NCBI GenBank assembly: GCA_963830365.1 | Contig: CAWHMU010000029.1 | Span: 1-17,310, forward strand | DNA from: an uncultured Chlamydiae bacterium | GTDB taxonomy: Bacteria; Chlamydiota; Chlamydiia; Chlamydiales; Parachlamydiaceae | Reading direction: 5' to 3' | DNA length: 17,310 nt | Part shown: positions 2,913-12,609 of the stretch, in pieces | Position numbering within the stretch: position 1 is the first letter of the stretch | How the letters are laid out: the number at the start of each line of letters is the position of its first letter | The notes under the pieces: generated by a model | The model's input: only the letters and a program-made list of their open reading frames with translations | The model's database searches: none | What the model was told of the DNA's origin: nothing | Translations under genes and position numbers: made by a program

Positions 2913-5660
2913 TTAAGCTTGCGGTGTCGCTGTAAAGGCAGCTTTGGCGAGGTAGTCCCCTTCCAGCAGGCGGTAGTTGATCTTGCCGGTGCCCATGATG
3001 GGCAGCTCGTCCAGCTTGATGACGGCAGAGACTCTGACGAGGTTGCTGAAGCCGGAATCCTTCAGGGTGCTATTGACCTCTTCAAGGACGATATCAAAGC
3101 GGCTGAAGAGGAATAATTTCGTCTTCTCTCCCGGAATTTCTTTCGAGCACATAGCCAGGGAAGGCCCCTCTTGATTCGTCGGCCAGCCCTTCTTGACGCC
3201 AGCTTCCAATAGAGCTTCTTCCAGCGATGCCAAACTGACCATTTCGCCGCCGATCTTGACGAAGCGCTTCATCCGGCCGGAAAGCGTCAAAAAGCCTTTG
3301 TCGTCCAGATAGCCGAGATCGCCCGTCTTATACCAGCGCTCGCCATTGATGGTGGCGAAGGGAGAGGCCAGGCCGGGATTGAGATAGCCGTTGAAGATGT
3401 TAGGGCCTTTGGCCAGGATCAGACCGCGCTCGCCCTGTGGCAAGGGCTTTTCAGTCTCAGGATGGACGATGCACAGCTCGATACCGGGGAGGGCTTTGCC
3501 AACGCCCTTGCTGTGGCTGTCGGGCGGATTCATGGTCAATACCGGCGAGCATTCCGTGATGCCGTATCCTTCCATCAGGATGCCCGGCTTGCCGCGCTCT
3601 TCCAGCATTTTGAATAATTCCGGCGGCGCCTTTTCGGCGCCGGTGACGCACAGGCGCATGGTTTTGATATCCTCTGCCGTGGCCGCTTTCAGCATCCCCT
3701 TGATAAATGTCGGCGCGCCGCACATGATGGTCAGCTGCCAGCGGGCAAAGCCGCGCGCCAGCTTCTTGCCGTCGGTAGGATTCGGGGAATAGAACACTCT
3801 CACTCCCGACAAAAGCCCAAGGATGCCGCTGATGGTGAAACCGAAAGAGTGGAACGGCGGCAGGATGCCATAGATGGCATCATCGGAGAAGACCTCGACA
3901 GCCTTAAGGGAAGCTCGCAAATTGCTTAATATATTCTGCTGCGATAGCGGCACGCCTTTGGGCATGCTTTCAGTACCGCTGGTGAACAGCAGCACCGCCG
4001 GGCTGTCTTTGCTGACCTTGTCGATGGCAAACGTCTTCAAGAGGGCTCGCGTGCTCATTTTAGAGCGGATGAAGGCTTTAAGTTTATCGGCAAGGGTGAT
4101 CTCCCGCACCACGTCTTCCAGCATTACCAGCATCTCATCGACGCCGGTGAGGTCGACATTTTCCAGCTTGTCGATGAAGGCCCAGGAGCTCAACACCACC
4201 TGCACTTTGGACAGCTGGGCGACGGACTCCAGATGGCGCGGACCGACGGTCCAGTTGACCATCAGAGGTACCTTGCCGGCCAGCTGGCAGGCCAGGATGA
4301 GCAGGTTGGCGCCGGCGCTGGCCGGCAGCATGATGCCGACATAGGAACCGGGAAGCTTGCGCAGATACTCGGCGATCAGCACGGCGCGCAATTTAAGCTG
4401 GGCATAGGTCTGGATGCCCATGCGGGCATCGGCACAGGCGACGGCCCCTTTGGCACGGGCGCACTGGTTCAAAAATACTTCTGCGATGGTATCGCCAGGG
4501 GCGATATCGACGCGCCGCTTGGCTACCGGCTGCAGCCATTTTGACAGGTTGAATTTTTCATCTTCGACAATTTCTTGGCATTCGATCTGGTGGGCAGCGA
4601 TGCCCATCAACTTGGCAACCGTCGTCAATTCTGTGGCTTGCACGCCGCTGACATCGTATTGATCCTGCAGGAAGGCGATGAGATCTGCCGTATCCAGCGA
4701 GTCAAGGCCGAGATCCGTGGCCAGATGCATTTCAGGTTTTATGGTGGCCGGATCGCATTCCAAAAGCTCGGCCAGTTTGGCGATGATGTTAGCCTGCACC
4801 TCTTTGGGGATGGACGCCAGAGGGATTTCCTTTTCGGAAGGGGCGTTGACACTGCGCAATGGCAGGTACTTCTTAGAGAACATACTATAGGAAACAAGCA
4901 CCAGTGAATCGCCGGGAGACTCCCCGCTTTGCTGGCTCAGCCCATCGGGCTGGTTGTACCATTTCTCAAGGTATCTATTGATCTCCAAACGCGAAGCCTG
5001 GCGCGGGAAATCCACCGGCGCGACTTCAAACTCCACCATGACTTCACGGCGTGGGGTGAACAGGATAAGATTTTTTAGCAGCGCTTTTAAATTATCCACA
5101 ATAATACTCCCCAAGGCTGAAGTATCGCCGGTGGCCCGGGAAAAACTGCTCCCCCATAACCCCTTCACGCGCACCAATACGACATTGGCTTCCGGCACCT
5201 CCTGGATGATGTGGTGGACGGCAGAGGTGCCGCCGATGACTTCCCGTGCGCTATGCTTGGCTTTTCCTGAAGGATATATCAGGAAATTTTCTTTACCTTT
5301 CAAGCCCTCAATGACCTCATTGATGACTTTGTCCCCCTTCTTGCGCTTGAGGCTGTTAGTTGAGCTGACAAAGTCCGGCACCGGCAAAGCATTGATCAGG
5401 CGCATCATCGAATGGACGACGGGCAGATAATACATGAATTCTACCACCAGCGGGCGCACCTTGAATTTAGGCCATAGGGTTAGTGAGGTGATCAGGGGAT
5501 CGATGAAGAAGGTGGGATGGTTCGGCATGAACAGAATGCCTCCCTTCCTATTTAAGGCGGCGGGAGTCAGCTTATCAAAGCCCTTTGCCCGAATGCGATA
5601 GCGCAGCCCAAGGGTCACATTAAGCAATTTGATGGCCAGATATTCGACAACTCTCTTCAC
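2913..5660 (-). CDS. aas: Aas-like fusion: PlsC-type acyltransferase + acyl carrier (PP-binding) domain + AMP-dependent acyl synthetase
   Basis: NHPTFFIDP / IYPSG acyltransferase motifs; DLGLDSLD phosphopantetheine site; adenylation motifs FTSGTESMPKG, EGYGITE, YKTGDLG, GRMKRF and GKI. GTG start; stop lies 1 bp before the mutM start. Confidence 0.9.
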   Translation of the reverse strand: MKRVVEYLAIKLLNVTLGLRYRIRAKGFDKLTPAALNRKGGILFMPNHPTFFIDPLITSLTLWPKFKVRPLVVEFMYYLPVVHSMMRLINALPVPDFVSSTNSLKRKKGDKVINEVIEGLKGKENFLIYPSGKAKHSAREVIGGTSAVHHIIQEVPEANVVLVRVKGLWGSSFSRATGDTSALGSIIVDNLKALLKNLILFTPRREVMVEFEVAPVDFPRQASRLEINRYLEKWYNQPDGLSQQSGESPGDSLVLVSYSMFSKKYLPLRSVNAPSEKEIPLASIPKEVQANIIAKLAELLECDPATIKPEMHLATDLGLDSLDTADLIAFLQDQYDVSGVQATELTTVAKLMGIAAHQIECQEIVEDEKFNLSKWLQPVAKRRVDIAPGDTIAEVFLNQCARAKGAVACADARMGIQTYAQLKLRAVLIAEYLRKLPGSYVGIMLPASAGANLLILACQLAGKVPLMVNWTVGPRHLESVAQLSKVQVVLSSWAFIDKLENVDLTGVDEMLVMLEDVVREITLADKLKAFIRSKMSTRALLKTFAIDKVSKDSPAVLLFTSGTESMPKGVPLSQQNILSNLRASLKAVEVFSDDAIYGILPPFHSFGFTISGILGLLSGVRVFYSPNPTDGKKLARGFARWQLTIMCGAPTFIKGMLKAATAEDIKTMRLCVTGAEKAPPELFKMLEERGKPGILMEGYGITECSPVLTMNPPDSHSKGVGKALPGIELCIVHPETEKPLPQGERGLILAKGPNIFNGYLNPGLASPFATINGERWYKTGDLGYLDDKGFLTLSGRMKRFVKIGGEMVSLASLEEALLEAGVKKGWPTNQEGPSLAMCSKEIPGEKTKLFLFSRFDIVLEEVNSTLKDSGFSNLVRVSAVIKLDELPIMGTGKINYRLLEGDYLAKAAFTATPQA

Positions 5661-5857: not shown

Positions 5858-8299
5858 TTAAGCCTGATTCATATATTTTTCTTCAAGCTCATTATAATGA
5901 ATTTTACCGGCGCCGGTGATCGGCAATTTGTCCAATTTCTTTACTAGAGATACTTTTACCAGGTTGCTGAATCCGGCTTTCTTCAATACGCTATTGACTT
6001 CATCAGCCGAGATGTCGAATCTGCAAAACAGGGTGATCTTGGATTTTTCGCCGGCGATTTCTTTGGCGCAGATTGCCAGCATCGGTTCATCCTGGTTGGC
6101 CTGGGGGTAGATTTTTAAGATGTGCTGCATCAGCACGTCTTCGATGGCGGCAAGGCTCACCATCTCGCCTCCCATCTTGACAAAGCGTTTGATGCGTCCG
6201 GAAATTGTCAGGTAGCCATGTTCATCCAGATAGCCAAGATCGCCGGTTTTATACCAATTGGCATTGTTGACCATAGTGAAGGGGGAGGAAATCCCTTTAT
6301 TGACATAGCCGGTGAAGATATTGGGACCATTGACTAAAATCAGCCCGGCTTGGCCGGTGGGCAACAAAACTTCTGTCTCGGGATGGACGATGCATATGTT
6401 TATGCCGGGCAACGGTTTGCCGACACCTTTATGGGGCGCGCCGAGAGGATTCAAGGTTAGTACAGGCGAACATTCGGTGATACCATACCCTTCCCTTAAG
6501 TTTATGCCCTTATTTAATTTCTCCAGCTTCTGAAACAATTCGACTGGGCATTTTTCCGCACCGGTGATACACAGGCGCAGCGTTTTGATTTGACTTGGAT
6601 CGGAGACGAATTTAAGCATGCATTTAAGGAAGGTGGGGGCGGCAAAAATGATCGTTGCCTGCCAGCGCGTGAAGTTGCGGGCGATACAACGGCCGTCGTT
6701 TGGATTAGGGTAGAAAAATACGCGCGTGCCGGAGAGCAAGCCAAGCAGGCCGCCGACGGTAAAGCCAAAGGAATGGAAGGGGGGCAAGAAGCTGAAGATG
6801 ACATCGTCGGAAAAAACGGTCTCGGCGGTTAGGCAGCCCCTTAAGTTACTCAACAGGTTGGTGTGTGAAAGTGGCACGCCCTTGGGCTGCGCTTCGGTGC
6901 CGCTGGTGAATAACAGCACCGCCTGGCTATCGGGCGAGACTTTATCTATGCCAAAGCGTTTCATGATTGCCCGCGTGCCCTGTTTGGCACGGAACCATGC
7001 CTTAAGCTTATCGATGAGGGAGAGCTGCTTGACGATATCATCGATCATCAGCAGGCGGTCGTCGACACCATTGAGATCGACGCTGTCCAGGCGTTCCAGA
7101 AAGGCTGATGAGCTGATCACCACCTCGACATGTGAAATCTCTATCACTGAGGCTAGATGGCGCGGCCCGACGGTCCAGTTTACCATCAACGGCACTTTCC
7201 CCGCCAGCTGGCAGGCCAGGATGAGCAGGTTGGCGCCGACGCTTGAAGGCAGCATGATGCCGATATACTTGCCGGGCAGCTTCCGAATATAATTGGCAAT
7301 GATAATGCTGCGCAGCTTTAGCTCGGCATAAGTTTGTATGCCCAGGCGTTCATCGGCACAGGCGTTTAAATTCCCCGCGCGGGCGCATTGATTTAAAAAG
7401 ACTTCGGCAATGGTCTTTCCCGGCGCGATATCGACGCGGAATTTGACCCTGCCATCCTCCCATTTGGGGAGTGTGACGTTTTTCTTATCTTTAGTTTCGC
7501 CGGCTGGAGGGATGAGCACGAGGGTATCGCCCGGCGTATCGCTTGTACTAGTGGCATCGGCCGGCTTGCCCAGGCCATCGGGACTATTATACCACAGTTC
7601 CAGGCGCCGGTTGAAATCTTGGCGCGTGGCATTCCAGGGGAAGATGGCAGGGGCCACTTCAAACTCGACCACGACATCACGGCGCGGGGCAAAGAACAGT
7701 AAATTCTTAAGCAGAATTTTGGCAGATGAGCATAGCAAGCCAAAAGTTGTCGGTTCTTTGTCGCACAAAGCCCTTGAAAAGCTGCTGCCCCACAGTCCTT
7801 TCACTCTTATCAACACGATGTTGGCATCAGGACAATGGCTGACGATATGATAAGCTGACGTGGCATTACTGCCGATCGTCTCATAGGCGGAATTTTTGAC
7901 TTTGCCTGCCGGATAGATAAGGATATTCTGCTTCAGCTGCAAGCCTTTGATGGCGCGGTCGAGGGCTTCGTCTTGTTTTTTGCGTTTTTGGCTATGACCG
8001 GAGCTGACGAAATTGGGGATAGGGATGCCATCCAAGGCGCACATCAAAGCATGCATCACAGGTACGCGATAGATATTTTCGGCTATCACCGGCCGAAAAG
8101 GAATTTTAGGCCAGAGGGCTAGAAAAGTCACGAGGGTGTCGATGAAATAGGCGGGGTGATTGGACAGAAATACGATGCCGCCAGTTTTAGTGAGCAGGTC
8201 TGCCCTTAAATTTTCCATGCCTTCCACCCGAATGCGATAGCGGCCGGAAAAGGCCAGCTTTATAATACAGGCTAAGAAATATTGGATCGCTTTTTTCAC
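5858..8299 (-). CDS. aas: Second Aas-like paralog (acyltransferase + acyl synthetase) lacking the internal ACP domain
   Basis: Colinear with 2913-5660 (NHPAYFID, KGLWGSSFSRA, NWTVGPRHL, FTSGTEAQPKG, EGYGITE, YKTGDLG) but about 100 aa shorter, with no GxDSL motif. GTG start with AAGGAG RBS. Confidence 0.88.
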   Translation of the reverse strand: MKKAIQYFLACIIKLAFSGRYRIRVEGMENLRADLLTKTGGIVFLSNHPAYFIDTLVTFLALWPKIPFRPVIAENIYRVPVMHALMCALDGIPIPNFVSSGHSQKRKKQDEALDRAIKGLQLKQNILIYPAGKVKNSAYETIGSNATSAYHIVSHCPDANIVLIRVKGLWGSSFSRALCDKEPTTFGLLCSSAKILLKNLLFFAPRRDVVVEFEVAPAIFPWNATRQDFNRRLELWYNSPDGLGKPADATSTSDTPGDTLVLIPPAGETKDKKNVTLPKWEDGRVKFRVDIAPGKTIAEVFLNQCARAGNLNACADERLGIQTYAELKLRSIIIANYIRKLPGKYIGIMLPSSVGANLLILACQLAGKVPLMVNWTVGPRHLASVIEISHVEVVISSSAFLERLDSVDLNGVDDRLLMIDDIVKQLSLIDKLKAWFRAKQGTRAIMKRFGIDKVSPDSQAVLLFTSGTEAQPKGVPLSHTNLLSNLRGCLTAETVFSDDVIFSFLPPFHSFGFTVGGLLGLLSGTRVFFYPNPNDGRCIARNFTRWQATIIFAAPTFLKCMLKFVSDPSQIKTLRLCITGAEKCPVELFQKLEKLNKGINLREGYGITECSPVLTLNPLGAPHKGVGKPLPGINICIVHPETEVLLPTGQAGLILVNGPNIFTGYVNKGISSPFTMVNNANWYKTGDLGYLDEHGYLTISGRIKRFVKMGGEMVSLAAIEDVLMQHILKIYPQANQDEPMLAICAKEIAGEKSKITLFCRFDISADEVNSVLKKAGFSNLVKVSLVKKLDKLPITGAGKIHYNELEEKYMNQA

Positions 8300-8533: not shown

Positions 8534-8658
8534 CTATACCATGATCCAGTGAGAATTTGACATCTTGGGTCACTTTCGATCTTTCAACTGCGGGGCTTTG
8601 GCGCAGCCAAAATGTGCACAACCTAACCGCGCATGGTCCTAACCACGCAATGGTATAG
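8534..8658. repeat. TA-flanked MITE-like element (CTATACCAT...ATGGTATAG)
   Basis: 9-bp terminal IR at 8534-8542 / 8650-8658. The right arm tgtgcacaacctaaccgcgcatggt resembles the 1401-1462 arms and has a local tandem duplication (8622-8637 / 8638-8654). Confidence 0.55.
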
Positions 8659-8695: not shown

Positions 8696-8810
8696 CAGGC
8701 AGAAATTTAAGGTTCATCACACAAATGAGTGGTTGACATTCATCCAGTTTTGGGGCCAAAGACGTGAAGTAGAGTATAGAGATGTTACTAGGCGAAGCCC
8801 ATCTCTTTGT

Positions 8811-9205
8811 AGCCCGTCAGCTAAGGCTTGCGAGCGAAAGCGAAGACAGCCACAGCTACGGGTTTGTACAAACAAAAGATAACCCCATCGAGACAATTGC
8901 AAAAGTATTTCACGAGTTATACAGCGATTCTTTGGAAGTCAATCGTACCCGGGATCAAAATGAATCGATGCTAGAACGCTCAAAACTACACAAAAACTCG
9001 AGCTTTACTTCAAGAATTCACAATAACTTCAATTTAGAACAATTTATTGTCACTTATGCAATTGCCTCCATCGGGGTTCTTCTCTTTAGTCCTTATACCT
9101 TAATAGATTAAAAGAGAAGAACCCCGATGGGGTTAAGCAGTCAATTTACTGTTCCCGTAGCTGCGGCTGTCTTCGCTTTCGCTCGCAAGCCTTAGCTGAC
9201 GGGCT
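8811..9205. repeat. Pair of inverted 52-bp palindromic units (REP/REPIN-like)
   Basis: 8811-8862 equals the reverse complement of 9154-9205 with 1 mismatch. Each unit is itself an imperfect hairpin (cccgt-agct...agct-acggg). Confidence 0.9.
9068..9130. repeat. Perfect 20-bp inverted repeat
   Basis: ccatcggggttcttctcttt (9068-9087) / aaagagaagaaccccgatgg (9111-9130). Confidence 0.9.
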
Positions 9206-9206
9206 T

Positions 9207-9498
9207 CCGAGTAACAATAGGTTGAATGCTTACGAAACTTATGCCTGCGTTATTGGTGGATATTTCATCATTTCTCCTGCTTTTGGAGTCGAAAGGCATT
9301 AATCATTAAAAAGGCGGAGGAAAGAACATAATGCCAGGCGATCTTCCGAACGGGATAGCTATGCTTCCCAATGATATTATCGCGATTCTTTCCGACCAAG
9401 CTACAAAACGGGCATTCAGCACCAGTGCTCGATGGGTCAATTTTTTCCACGAATTTTTGATTACCGCTATTCAACCGGTCTTACTTTTTTTGTCTTTT
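9207..9498 (-). ncRNA. Candidate bridge/seek RNA in the IS110 3' non-coding end
   Basis: About 290 nt non-coding with several stems. Contains a target-like segment (9408-9418, 9/11) followed by a donor-junction match (9341-9349, 9/9). Confidence 0.4.
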
Positions 9499-10896
9499 TT
9501 ACGCCGCTACGGCAACTAGTTTATAACCTAATTTTTCAGCTTTTTTATGCAACCCAGCCAAGTTTTTCATTGCATGCATTTTTTCATTATATTCGGCTCC
9601 TTTTTCATAATATTGCCAGCCTTCCTTACACATGTGATATACCATTGTCGCTAGCTTATGCGCTCCAGCCTTAATCCCTTTAGAGTTGTCCGTTCGGCCG
9701 CATATGCGCCTGATATGTGCTCCCAATGCTGCATCTGATTTTTTAGCTGCCACTGCAGACATTCTTAAAGCTTGTGAAATGTAATTGGCGCTTGGTTTTT
9801 GCCTTTTGCTTTTACGTCGTTTGCCTCCTGAAACATTGTTGCCGGGGGACAGTTTCAACCAGGAAGAAAATGCTTTTTCGCTATTCCATGCACTTACGTC
9901 AGTCCCTCCAAGTTCTGAATAAATGAGTAGAGCAGTACTATCTGCTATACCTGGCAGGGCAGTTAGGTCTATTCCCGTTTTTCTCCAGAGAGTGTCTCTG
10001 ACACCAAAACAAAGATCATTTTTCTTAGGTTTTTTGAATTGAGAAAACTGAGGACGCTTTTTTTTATCCTTATGGTTCTCTGGTGGAGGCGTATTGACTA
10101 CATCAGGAAATCGCTCAAGCTCCTTCTGAATGCATTCGTCACATGCGTCCAGCTGTTTATGTGCAAAATCGTATTGATCTAGGGCTTGCTTTAGCGAAAA
10201 AATATGTTCATCTTGATAATTCCCTGTCAGAGCTGCTACAAATAGGCTCTCTTCTTTTTTGCAAAGCTTATTCCTCATTGCAGCTAACTTATATGGATCT
10301 CTTTCACCAGCTACTATTGCTCGTGTTATATTTAAACCGGAGACTCCCGCTATATCGCTTACAGCGGTGCTCAGCTTGATATTCATTAGCTGCAAGGCTT
10401 TTTCCATATGCAGAAGTGCATATTGCTTCGTTTTGATGACATTCATGCGCTGTCTTACATACGCCCGCAATTTTAAACGATCGCGTGGCGGGCGATAAGC
10501 AGCTCTTAATAGACCACAAGAATATAATGTTTGGATCCATTGAGCATCCACCACATCAGTTTTTCTCCCTGGTGGATTTTTTACATTTTTAGCATCCACT
10601 AAGACAGGCATCAAGCCTGATTCTTCCATAATTTCATATAGGGGAATCCAATAAACACCCGTAGCTTCCATAACACCAATTTCTACTTTAGCCTCTTTAA
10701 GAACTTTGACTATTTCACGGAGTTGAGGTGTCGTTGTACCAAATTCCCTCACGTAAGAACCACCTTTACCATCAGGAATAGCTACATGGATTAGCTTATC
10801 TCCTATATCGATGCCAGCAACAGTAGGATCGATATATCCAAGCCTGTTTTTATGTTGTTGTTTTTTTAAATGATTGGAATTGCTATTATTAGACAT
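9499..10896 (-). CDS. IS110-family DEDD recombinase/transposase
   Basis: RuvC-like DEDD motifs AGIDIG, VMEATGVYW and RKTDVVDA; C-terminal LPGI...LSPGNNVSGG (catalytic Ser motif); intact 465 aa with AAGGAG RBS. Confidence 0.97.
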   Translation of the reverse strand: MSNNSNSNHLKKQQHKNRLGYIDPTVAGIDIGDKLIHVAIPDGKGGSYVREFGTTTPQLREIVKVLKEAKVEIGVMEATGVYWIPLYEIMEESGLMPVLVDAKNVKNPPGRKTDVVDAQWIQTLYSCGLLRAAYRPPRDRLKLRAYVRQRMNVIKTKQYALLHMEKALQLMNIKLSTAVSDIAGVSGLNITRAIVAGERDPYKLAAMRNKLCKKEESLFVAALTGNYQDEHIFSLKQALDQYDFAHKQLDACDECIQKELERFPDVVNTPPPENHKDKKKRPQFSQFKKPKKNDLCFGVRDTLWRKTGIDLTALPGIADSTALLIYSELGGTDVSAWNSEKAFSSWLKLSPGNNVSGGKRRKSKRQKPSANYISQALRMSAVAAKKSDAALGAHIRRICGRTDNSKGIKAGAHKLATMVYHMCKEGWQYYEKGAEYNEKMHAMKNLAGLHKKAEKLGYKLVAVAA

Positions 10897-10964
10897 GAAC
10901 GATCTCCTTTTAGCTTTTTACTGTGAGAAAAAGAAAGCTATTATAAGAGATCGTTCTTTTTTTT
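10897..10964 (-). promoter_or_regulatory. RBS-occluding hairpin with an internal TATAAT -10 upstream of the IS110 ORF
   Basis: gaacgatctc (10897-10906) / gagatcgttc (10947-10956), with inner tagcttt/aaagcta. Minus-strand TATAAT at 10940-10945. A T8 run follows on the plus strand. Confidence 0.6.
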
Positions 10965-11128
10965 CGAATTATGACAACCGTTACTTTCCAGATATCAGCG
11001 GTAAACCGCTTGGGCGCTACAAAGAGATGGGTTTGTCCATGCCTTGCTTCACATCTTTAACCTGCAAAAAATGATGAACCACTTTTAAACCACTCATTTG
11101 TGTGATGAGCCAAATTTAACAACGTATA

Positions 11129-11196: not shown

Positions 11197-12609
11197 ATGA
11201 CAAGCACAAACACAGGCGGCGGCCCAAACATAAATAATTTTCAAATGTCTTTTAGTTTATTTGCCACCTCTTCTGCATCAACACCAGCATCCGCAAGCAC
11301 CCAGGGAGGAACCATAAGTCCTTTGGTTTCAATGGCTATGGCTTCTTCCCCCTCTCCAACTAGCAATATGGGAACAATGATAGGAATAAGTAATGAAGTA
11401 GTTGCTGAGACAGAAGAAAAACATTATGAAGCAGGGACTGCAAAGCATTATAAAACCATTAGGATAATTGACGACCTCTTCCACGATTATCTAGTCGGCC
11501 CAAAAAGCGAGCTGGAACAGGAATGCAAAGCGGCCAAGGAGATTGCATTAGCCCTGTCCCAAACGATAGAAGCTGGTGTATCTGAAGATAGCGATAGCGA
11601 CGGAGATGATAGTTTAGCAGACTACAGCGCTCCAAAAAAGCACGAAACGACTGCTGAAGAAATACTAAGATTTCTGGGGAAAAATTCAGTCGGAATGGGA
11701 TTGGAATTGGATGTTCAAGAAACTAAGCTCACCGACGGCTCTTATGCCATAAAAGTCCCCCATGCTAAATGCACCATGGACCAGGAGTTTGCCGAGCTGT
11801 TTGACAATGGGCCGGCAAAAGACCACTTCCAAACCATGGCCAAACTATGCACAGAATTTTTGCATGGCATGTGCGACCTGCAGGCCGCAGGCTATGTACA
11901 CGGCAATCTCAAAGCTGGAAATTTGAAAATCTATCAGGATGAGCAGTTTATCAATGCTGAAAAGAGCTTGAAGATTTCAGGATTAAAGAAAGTGCAGCTC
12001 TGCAAGGACAATCAAGAATCGACCTATACTGGAAATATGCGCACCGTCAATCCTGAAGGCATACTAAGCAAAAATGGAGAGGTCTATAGTGTCGCTTTGC
12101 TGCTCACCGGCATGCTGGAAAGCGAGTTTTTATACTACGCTAACACAAAAAGAAACACCGATATGCTTGTCCAGCCGGAAACAACAGCCGCTAATAGTAT
12201 ATATCCCCTCCCTGACAATTGCCATGGCTTCGAGAAGTTTCTATGCCTTGACAAGGATTGTCCCCAATTTGCTGCCGACAGTACAGCTGGAAAAATAACA
12301 AGAGTTGCCCAAACGGTAGCTTCCTTTATTCCCTTTGTCTCCAGTTGGGTCGCCTATGACCCGACTTGCGCCGCTGCAAAACAAATCCGCACAAAAGTCC
12401 ACAAGTATATTGACGCCGTTTGCGATGAGCTCACCAATAAGTATCAGGATGCATTCAATATTAAAGCCTTGAATGCCTTGCTCAAAAAAATGACGGATGA
12501 GAAACCCAGCCAGCGCGGCACGATGCAGGATGCTATGACGGAGTTTTCGAAGGCGGTAAAGCCATCATCAGGCGGAAGCTCTAAAAAGACCGATGAACAC
12601 AAGCTGTAG
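11197..12609 (+). CDS. Hanks-type Ser/Thr kinase-like protein (probable pseudokinase) with a Ser/Thr-rich N-terminus
   Basis: GYVHGNLKAGNL (catalytic loop), LKISGLKK (DFG position), YTGNMRTVNPE (activation/APE), GEVYSVA (subdomain IX) and PSQRGT (subdomain XI). Confidence 0.75.
   Translation: MTSTNTGGGPNINNFQMSFSLFATSSASTPASASTQGGTISPLVSMAMASSPSPTSNMGTMIGISNEVVAETEEKHYEAGTAKHYKTIRIIDDLFHDYLVGPKSELEQECKAAKEIALALSQTIEAGVSEDSDSDGDDSLADYSAPKKHETTAEEILRFLGKNSVGMGLELDVQETKLTDGSYAIKVPHAKCTMDQEFAELFDNGPAKDHFQTMAKLCTEFLHGMCDLQAAGYVHGNLKAGNLKIYQDEQFINAEKSLKISGLKKVQLCKDNQESTYTGNMRTVNPEGILSKNGEVYSVALLLTGMLESEFLYYANTKRNTDMLVQPETTAANSIYPLPDNCHGFEKFLCLDKDCPQFAADSTAGKITRVAQTVASFIPFVSSWVAYDPTCAAAKQIRTKVHKYIDAVCDELTNKYQDAFNIKALNALLKKMTDEKPSQRGTMQDAMTEFSKAVKPSSGGSSKKTDEHKL

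Follow-up and report, generated by a model that had tools for sequence, protein, structure and literature searches.

How does an IS110 recombinase recognise its own ends and its target when the RNA expected to guide it lies behind the gene? The question is raised by the window analysed here, 17,310 nucleotides (nt) of contig CAWHMU010000029.1 from an uncultured member of the Parachlamydiaceae (assembly GCA_963830365.1), in which an insertion sequence of the IS110 family runs on the minus strand (Table 1). We propose, with a probability of roughly two in three, that this is an ISPpu9-like IS110 element inserted in GTAG-tagged repeats resembling repetitive extragenic palindromic (REP) sequences, and that its predicted downstream bridge RNA has a donor loop that reads the joined element ends as one folded strand. 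The ends, core, target, RNA fold, four guides, handshake positions and the strand that is read are established by sequence comparison. A sequence-only reading of the window had already described an IS110 bridge system with its RNA on the 3' side and a target loop before the donor loop, distinct from the IS1111 type, and this description holds; its observations are confirmed in part and its interpretation is partly supported.

The ends of the element are fixed by other copies in its own genome. All 13 left ends start at the position equal to 11016 and are preceded by GTAG, while all 10 right ends stop at the AG equal to 9205-9204, as the sequence-only reading had placed the right end (9204). 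The left end that it chose, 11057, lies 41 bases outside the element in host sequence, and its AAG core has to be shortened to AG, although CT on the other strand stands. The 15-mer of the corrected empty target occurs 51 times in the genome, once in the window at 8795-8862, against no occurrence of the empty target predicted earlier. The circle junction predicted with it was wrong as well, and neither that junction nor the corrected one occurs, as expected for a circle junction; joined element ends were absent from four contig sets, in which no piece spans the element. As is usual in the IS110 family, there is a short core at both ends, a specific target and no long terminal repeat. No IS1111-type subterminal repeat is present, as had been noted, but a covarying 6-bp inverted repeat, 9215-9210 with 10985-10980 (at +32 and -12), had been overlooked.

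The target is a REP-like hairpin repeat with 78 matches in the genome, 64 with an intact tag, 9 at right element junctions and 5 others. It has the tag followed by a hairpin, the many copies and, often and genome-wide, the inverted pairs by which GTAG-family REPs are defined (see PMC3733652). Nine Y1_Tnp matches were found in the genome, none adjoining a listed repeat position when coordinates alone are compared, and no cognate Y1 (RAYT) transposase for the repeats was identified among them. At the right junction of copy C47 the first bases of the repeat are absent.

The non-coding region downstream of the recombinase open reading frame (ORF), put at about 290 nt earlier, measures 292 nt. Using profile hidden Markov models and pair counts, a profile seeded from this region gave 182 matches in the fetched homologous loci, all on the gene's strand; 132 non-redundant sequences reached at least 40 bits, three tandem downstream copies were skipped and 130 were aligned. 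Three RNA helices are 98-99% paired over 73 sequences, with compensatory changes on both sides, and the guides of the predicted two-loop RNA covary with target and donor, as is characteristic of the IS110 family. Of the bracketing stems proposed earlier, a long one recurs in the minimum-energy fold, whereas the full region folds no better than shuffled sequences (z -0.79). Rfam returned no family at gathering score, only low-scoring microRNA hairpin matches on the flanking repeat, and no free-standing copies of the RNA were found in the genome besides the 10 elements. The RNA would be processed from a transcript running through the recombinase gene. The promoter-like site upstream of that gene is weak, because a scan of the linear region gave 6 such sites against 5.4 expected.

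The target loop is the more conventional of the two. Its 3' guide is exact at four variable positions in 67 of 90 elements with a candidate left box (null mean 3.1, maximum 10), and between L209 and L216, which are 98.6% identical and have ends fixed by alignment, a one-base difference in this guide is mirrored in the targets. Beside it, two positions match the first left-end bases in 66/67 and 49/67 homologues (expected 45.6 and 18.9), a handshake pattern described for IS621 (PMC11208158, as far as its text was available). The 5' guide is weak and varies in register; it covaries with the right target at z 7.3 and 4.2 in two registers (n 60), and its single mismatch here falls at a target position that the table of junctions shows to be variable among insertions. 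Two other downstream-RNA elements in a second genome are laid out in the same way across several insertions. On the CT strand the loop shows the geometry of IS621, which makes an ordinary duplex the likely form of the target; on the gene's strand it follows the order that PMC11187229, in the part consulted, reports for IS1111 seekRNAs.

The sequence-only reading had placed the target guide elsewhere, on a 9/11 match at 9418-9408; the real guide, 9408-9401, begins where that match ends. The segment noted is scaffold, differing in 5 of 10 copies with the same target, and the match is at chance level, since of 5000 11-mers drawn at random from the genome, 216 agree with the region at 9/11 or better. 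To the element as then drawn (11057-9204, AAG core, target guide 9418-9408) we attach practically no credence: its strings do exist at 9418-9408 and 9349-9341, and seven bases of its donor match are real, but the 13 left ends at 11016, the absent empty target and a guide segment that differs between copies all contradict it. The second guides, which it could not find, both exist, one (9431-9427) an ordinary reverse complement, the other (9378-9373) not.

It is this other guide that sets the donor loop apart. The donor-loop 3' guide is straightforward: it equals the right end, located by motif independently of the guides, at all four variable positions in 61 of 65 elements (null mean 5.7, maximum 13), and all 15 of its changes in sister pairs are concerted with the DNA. 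Of the 9/9 donor match claimed at 9349-9341, seven bases belong to this guide and the last two to the closing stem; followed through homologues, the donor guide tracked the right end, or left donor. Against the first five bases of the left end, the donor-loop 5' guide gave no pairing signal at 9 offsets, with or without wobble (best positive z 1.2, n 64). What it matches, base for base, is a site lying 20-30 bases inside the left end, directly before the 6-bp repeat arm, itself placed 31-41 bases into the left end across elements. In 64 elements, chosen for clean anchors and an exact match of the target guide (tandem arrays account for some of the rows labelled 3p), guide and inner site share 184 matches against a permutation mean of 95.5 and a maximum of 125 in 1000 (z 11.4). 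The neighbouring register, used by the element in the window (5/5), gives z 3.6, the other seven at most 1.6, and the same test on the target loop is flat (85 versus 76). Ten further 3'-type elements, with ends located by the other guides and the better of two registers allowed in data and permutations alike, gave 40 matches versus 28.8, a value reached in 0 of 20000 permutations. The tree included 65 of the 75 elements; in 32 disjoint sister pairs the guides differ by 47 changes, and the DNA follows in 21 of them, compared with 1-5 in other registers and 0 when swapped.

Identity, as opposed to complementarity, implies pairing with the bottom strand, which is also the strand read by the other donor guide. 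Both donor guides are thus complementary to the CT strand, one to the right end beside the core and one 20-30 bases into the left end, and non-palindromic inner sites in relatives fix the strand. One might suppose that the fourth guide is regulatory, pairing with an antisense RNA from the left end in the manner of Asr9 of ISPpu9, and that the right donor arm is recognised by protein alone. Antisense RNA is produced across the 5' region of ISPpu9 (PMC12288879, main text) and would have the bottom-strand sequence; yet the segment corresponds in position to the right-target guide of the twin loop, measures no more than 4-6 bases and, whether the element is of the 5' or the 3' kind, lies at a constant distance from the DNA repeat arm, and we regard this role as quite improbable. 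An additional AG at the inner site, present in this element and a few 3' elements, was considered as a second core and dropped as not conserved.

What state the strand is in must be judged from the repeat arms and the DNA between them. In 42 of 46 elements the arm at one end is the exact complement of the arm at the other, and the arms fall into three sequence types, which the search patterns favour. Between core and inner site there is a hairpin; in 49 of 75 elements (null 4.5, maximum 10) its centre falls within a single 3-step window, a fixed register although the core-to-repeat distance spans 31 to 41. The same RNA and guides could act on a mostly double-stranded donor, the recombinase binding the arms as duplex and looping or locally melting the DNA to bring the inner site within reach of the fourth guide, with no need of a free single strand. 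Covariation reveals which strand is read and not its state, the protein is about 140 amino acids (aa) longer than that of IS621 and could bind extra DNA, and ISPpu9 with a mutated A-box palindrome still formed circles in end-point polymerase chain reaction (PMC12288879, in the accessible part). Even so, we consider a duplex donor rather unlikely: arms that change sequence among three types and stay complementary suit pairing better than protein read-out, and a hairpin held in register over a spacer of variable length suits a fold.

We therefore prefer the folded donor, for which we envisage the following. The CT strand of the joined ends would fold so that the two 6-bp arms pair and the hairpin closes the far side, leaving an internal loop of about 10 x 12 bases that may mimic the melted duplex bound by IS621. 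This strand would be cut and exchanged first, as in IS621, and would move as a single-strand circle or, alternatively, be exposed as an extruded cruciform arm. The model is supported by a 55-bp mini-element in the same genome that consists only of the left box fused to the right box (G000:C21 near 79230, minus strand; the core at its right end is AA). It is consistent, too, with the single-strand excision reported for IS621 (10.64898/2026.08.31.748434) and CazIS110 (10.1101/2025.10.25.684509) in the portions of these preprints that we consulted. The mini-element is inserted after a perfect target-guide match, outside any repeat.

Several observations weigh on the other side. CazIS110 integrates double-stranded donors better at one junction (same preprint, 10.1101/2025.10.25.684509), and the circles of the ISPpu9 palindrome mutant indicate that the inner hairpin may be dispensable for excision. 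Taken alone, that hairpin folds weakly (median z -1.3; 29 of 74 below -1.65, 12 above 0), and the donor-loop closing stem, the fourth helix as drawn on the alignment, is paired in only 46%. The main register reaches at least 4/5 matches in only 25 of 64 elements, and 2 of the 10 replication elements score 2/5, one of them without a clear repeat arm. The window's own inner site is palindromic and uses the minority register, and so cannot by itself show the strand.

Table 1. Positions of the element, its guides and its target in the window
Feature	Position	Strand	Remarks
Whole IS110 element	9204..11016	minus	1813 bp including one AG core copy; 13 left and 10 right junctions, 51 empty targets
Second AG core copy	11018-11017		adjoins left end at 11016
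Right half of interrupted GTAG-tagged hairpin repeat (target)	9154..9203	minus	
Left half of interrupted repeat	11017..11034	minus	terminal GTAG tag supplies AG core
Empty target, intact copy of GTAG-tagged repeat	8795..8862	plus	inverted orientation
Right-end box	9204..9215	minus	GTTACT arm of 6-bp repeat, 4 guide-read bases, AG core; like ISPpu9 B box
Left-end box	10980..11016	minus	6 bases, hairpin 11010-10997, guide-matched site 10996-10991, arm AGTAAC 10985-10980; like ISPpu9 A box
Promoter-like site	10967-10940	minus	within region 10897..10967; weak
10-bp hairpin	10956-10947 with 10906-10897	minus	candidate cover of ribosome-binding site; putative function
IS110 recombinase ORF	9499..10896	minus	465 aa; PF01548 and PF02371 (Pfam)
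Predicted bridge RNA, conserved core	9336..9439	minus	two internal loops that both enclose a hairpin; extent given for the conserved core
Target loop 5' guide	9427..9431	minus	reverse complement of core G and right target, 4/5 paired
Target loop 3' guide TTTTGTAG	9401..9408	minus	same sequence as left target and core, 7 exact, 1 wobble
Handshake-like positions	9399..9400	minus	equal to first two left-end bases, 1/2 here
Donor loop 5' guide	9373..9378	minus	identical to 10995-10991 inside left end; not complementary to core-adjacent bases
Donor loop 3' guide TTCGGAAG	9343..9350	minus	same sequence as the element's right end and core

The position of the RNA varies among relatives. In a set of 163 distinct near-full-length proteins, 129 have the motif upstream of the gene, 15 have it downstream and 4 have it on both sides, which we read as tandem arrays; for the other 15 it was not found. 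Of 18 downstream-RNA rows on the tree, 17 come from Chlamydiales (the window's own order, or so titled) and one from a Bacteroidota contig, and 8 rows of the same chlamydial group carry the RNA upstream. A quick tree gives three supported 3'-RNA groups (7, 9 and 2 rows) on an open base and at least 2 changes of RNA end, although a single origin of the 3' placement may still be accommodated. The RNA could have moved between element ends through tandem insertions or insertions of RNA-only mini-elements; such a route is suggested by the tandem arrays that relatives carry and by the ssr9 module behind the ISPpu9 gene (PMC12288879, as far as available). We lean, by a small degree, towards a broader reading, in which the large ISPpu9-like branch of IS110 would be a distinct class of bridge recombinases for single-stranded donors, the donor loop reading both sides of the bubble in the folded CT strand, and the RNA would be a mobile module, relocated between the 5' and 3' ends of chlamydial elements with its code unchanged, so that IS110 and IS1111 would not be set apart by RNA position. 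The occurrence of a single RNA family upstream in some related elements and downstream in others gives an extant example of the relocation that, for this split, Durrant et al. had only inferred.

The recombinase ORF (10896-9499, PF01548 and PF02371) is that of an IS110 recombinase, as the sequence-only reading had claimed. Residues D30, E77, D114, D117 and S356 are invariant in an alignment of 51 homologues and align with the catalytic motifs of IS621; the protein has the DEDD RuvC domain and the Tnp domain with catalytic serine of the family, and the best fold matches of its predicted model (predicted local distance difference test score, pLDDT, 82.9) are IS621 and ISCro4. The genome holds 13 protein matches to it, and a single-protein scan of the genome contig set returned no relatives. 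Copies of the element come in two variants with 96% protein identity and all guides in common (C33, C38, C40, C41 and C1 versus C29, C42, C46, C47 and C34). C38 has a variant-B gene with a variant-A tail in its last 100 bases, which suggests recombination between copies, and the copy at G000:C34 46957-50142 is split, near codon 35, by an intervening stretch of about 1.4 kb.

Some relatives differ in target or layout. A related GGAG-tagged repeat serves as target in G417. In L111 the target guide equals the donor guide and both flanks resemble element ends, which we read as a self-targeting element building tandem arrays. L244, L247, L114 and others form an AA-core sub-branch whose target guide matches a run of A residues where an upstream ORF ends; this ORF is presumably similar to IS3-type orfA. 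L216 and L220, two of three copies, carry a 98-bp palindromic insert between stop codon and RNA that is missing from L209.

Elsewhere in the window, short dispersed repeat families at 8711-8738, 11088-11111, 1507-1534 and 8535-8637 are nested around the target repeat, and such repeats are often paired about 184 or 100 bases apart. Two long tandem ORFs (2913-5660 and 5858-8299) encode what we take to be proteins resembling acyltransferase/acyl-CoA synthetase fusions. An ISL3 transposase at 253-1206 is cut by the contig end, and a weak kinase-like ORF lies at 11197-12609.

Whether circles in IS110 movement are single- or double-stranded is an open question in preprints of 2025-2026. If our proposal is true, the guide code makes sense only on a folded single strand, which offers a direct test by paired changes in guide and DNA. 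We did not find the folded donor in the literature searched, from which figures, preprint supplements, Durrant's Supplementary Table 5 and subscription papers were excluded and which included the available parts of PMC13626964, 10.1101/2025.05.14.653916, 10.64898/2026.10.21.760802, 10.64898/2026.08.14.744561, 10.1101/2024.06.21.599552 and PMC11208160; the RNA family may already be described in those sources. A target-side stem-loop has been described for ISPpu10 (10.64898/2026.03.19.712850, in the text available). The proposal would also explain the apparently missing donor guide of ISPpu9-like elements, and it predicts that a donor designed by the rules of IS621 will fail, a point relevant to the mining of these systems for editing tools.

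A folded single DNA strand as substrate, such as we propose here, is familiar from IS200/IS605 elements and from integron attC recombination. Their enzymes (HUH and tyrosine recombinase, respectively) are unrelated to that of IS110 and use no RNA guide, and the fold at the present locus is a predicted one. Closer in kind are IS621 and ISCro4 (IS622) (PMC11208160 and PMC11208158 in part; PDB 8wt6, 9t56), which share the DEDD plus serine protein and its fold, a target loop followed by a donor loop, 3' guides that read the CT-core strand, and handshake positions. The protein here is only 17-18% identical to theirs and about 140 aa longer, and gene and RNA run opposite to the CT strand. In IS621, according to the text consulted, both loops read staggered top and bottom strands beside the core; the target loop here does so, whereas the two donor guides share a single strand, which one of them reads far from the core. 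Nor does the RNA lie in the left end behind a junction promoter, as in IS621, but at the 3' end, the joined junction having been inspected by eye only.

A downstream RNA might suggest an ordinary IS1111-group element with a seekRNA, such as ISEc11, ISKpn4 and ISPa11 (PMC11187229, consulted in part). These share with our element the downstream RNA and the order of target matches, with the complement of the top strand first, and ISPa11 also targets REPs. Assignment to this group is nevertheless very improbable. There is no 11-13-bp subterminal inverted repeat at 7 and 3 bp from the ends, only the 6-bp repeat; the protein has 465 aa against the 330-350 aa reported there, a comparison by length and not by alignment to IS1111; the RNA is homologous to the upstream RNAs of IS110-group relatives, being upstream in 129/163; and the protein motifs, compared by eye, fit the ISPpu9 cluster. 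The same paper already notes IS110-type elements with a 3' non-coding region as an exception.

The closest likeness is to ISPpu9 and MITEPpu9 of Pseudomonas putida, members of the IS110 group (PMC12288879, of which text and supplement were available in part). They share the AG core, insertion in REPs, a left box of about 40 bp with a palindrome and a short right box at the same spacing (A and B boxes, supplement Table S2), and, as here, reliance on a junction promoter is not reported in that text. The recombinase motifs appear to fit the ISPpu9-cluster row of PMC11208160 Supplementary Table 1, judged by eye on that one row; ISPpu9 itself was not recovered among 401 sampled genomes. The ssr9 primer in the supplement of PMC12288879 resembles, by eye, the first loop motif of our RNA family, a hint that a mini-element might carry a copy of the bridge RNA in the form of Ssr9. 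The two systems differ in that the bridge RNA of ISPpu9 is placed in the 5' region and left unmapped in the text of that paper, which describes ends with no inverted repeats and does not put forward a folded donor, whereas here the RNA is downstream, with four guides mapped. With its AG core, A-box and B-box layout and REP target, the element belongs to the ISPpu9-like group of IS110 and not to IS1111.

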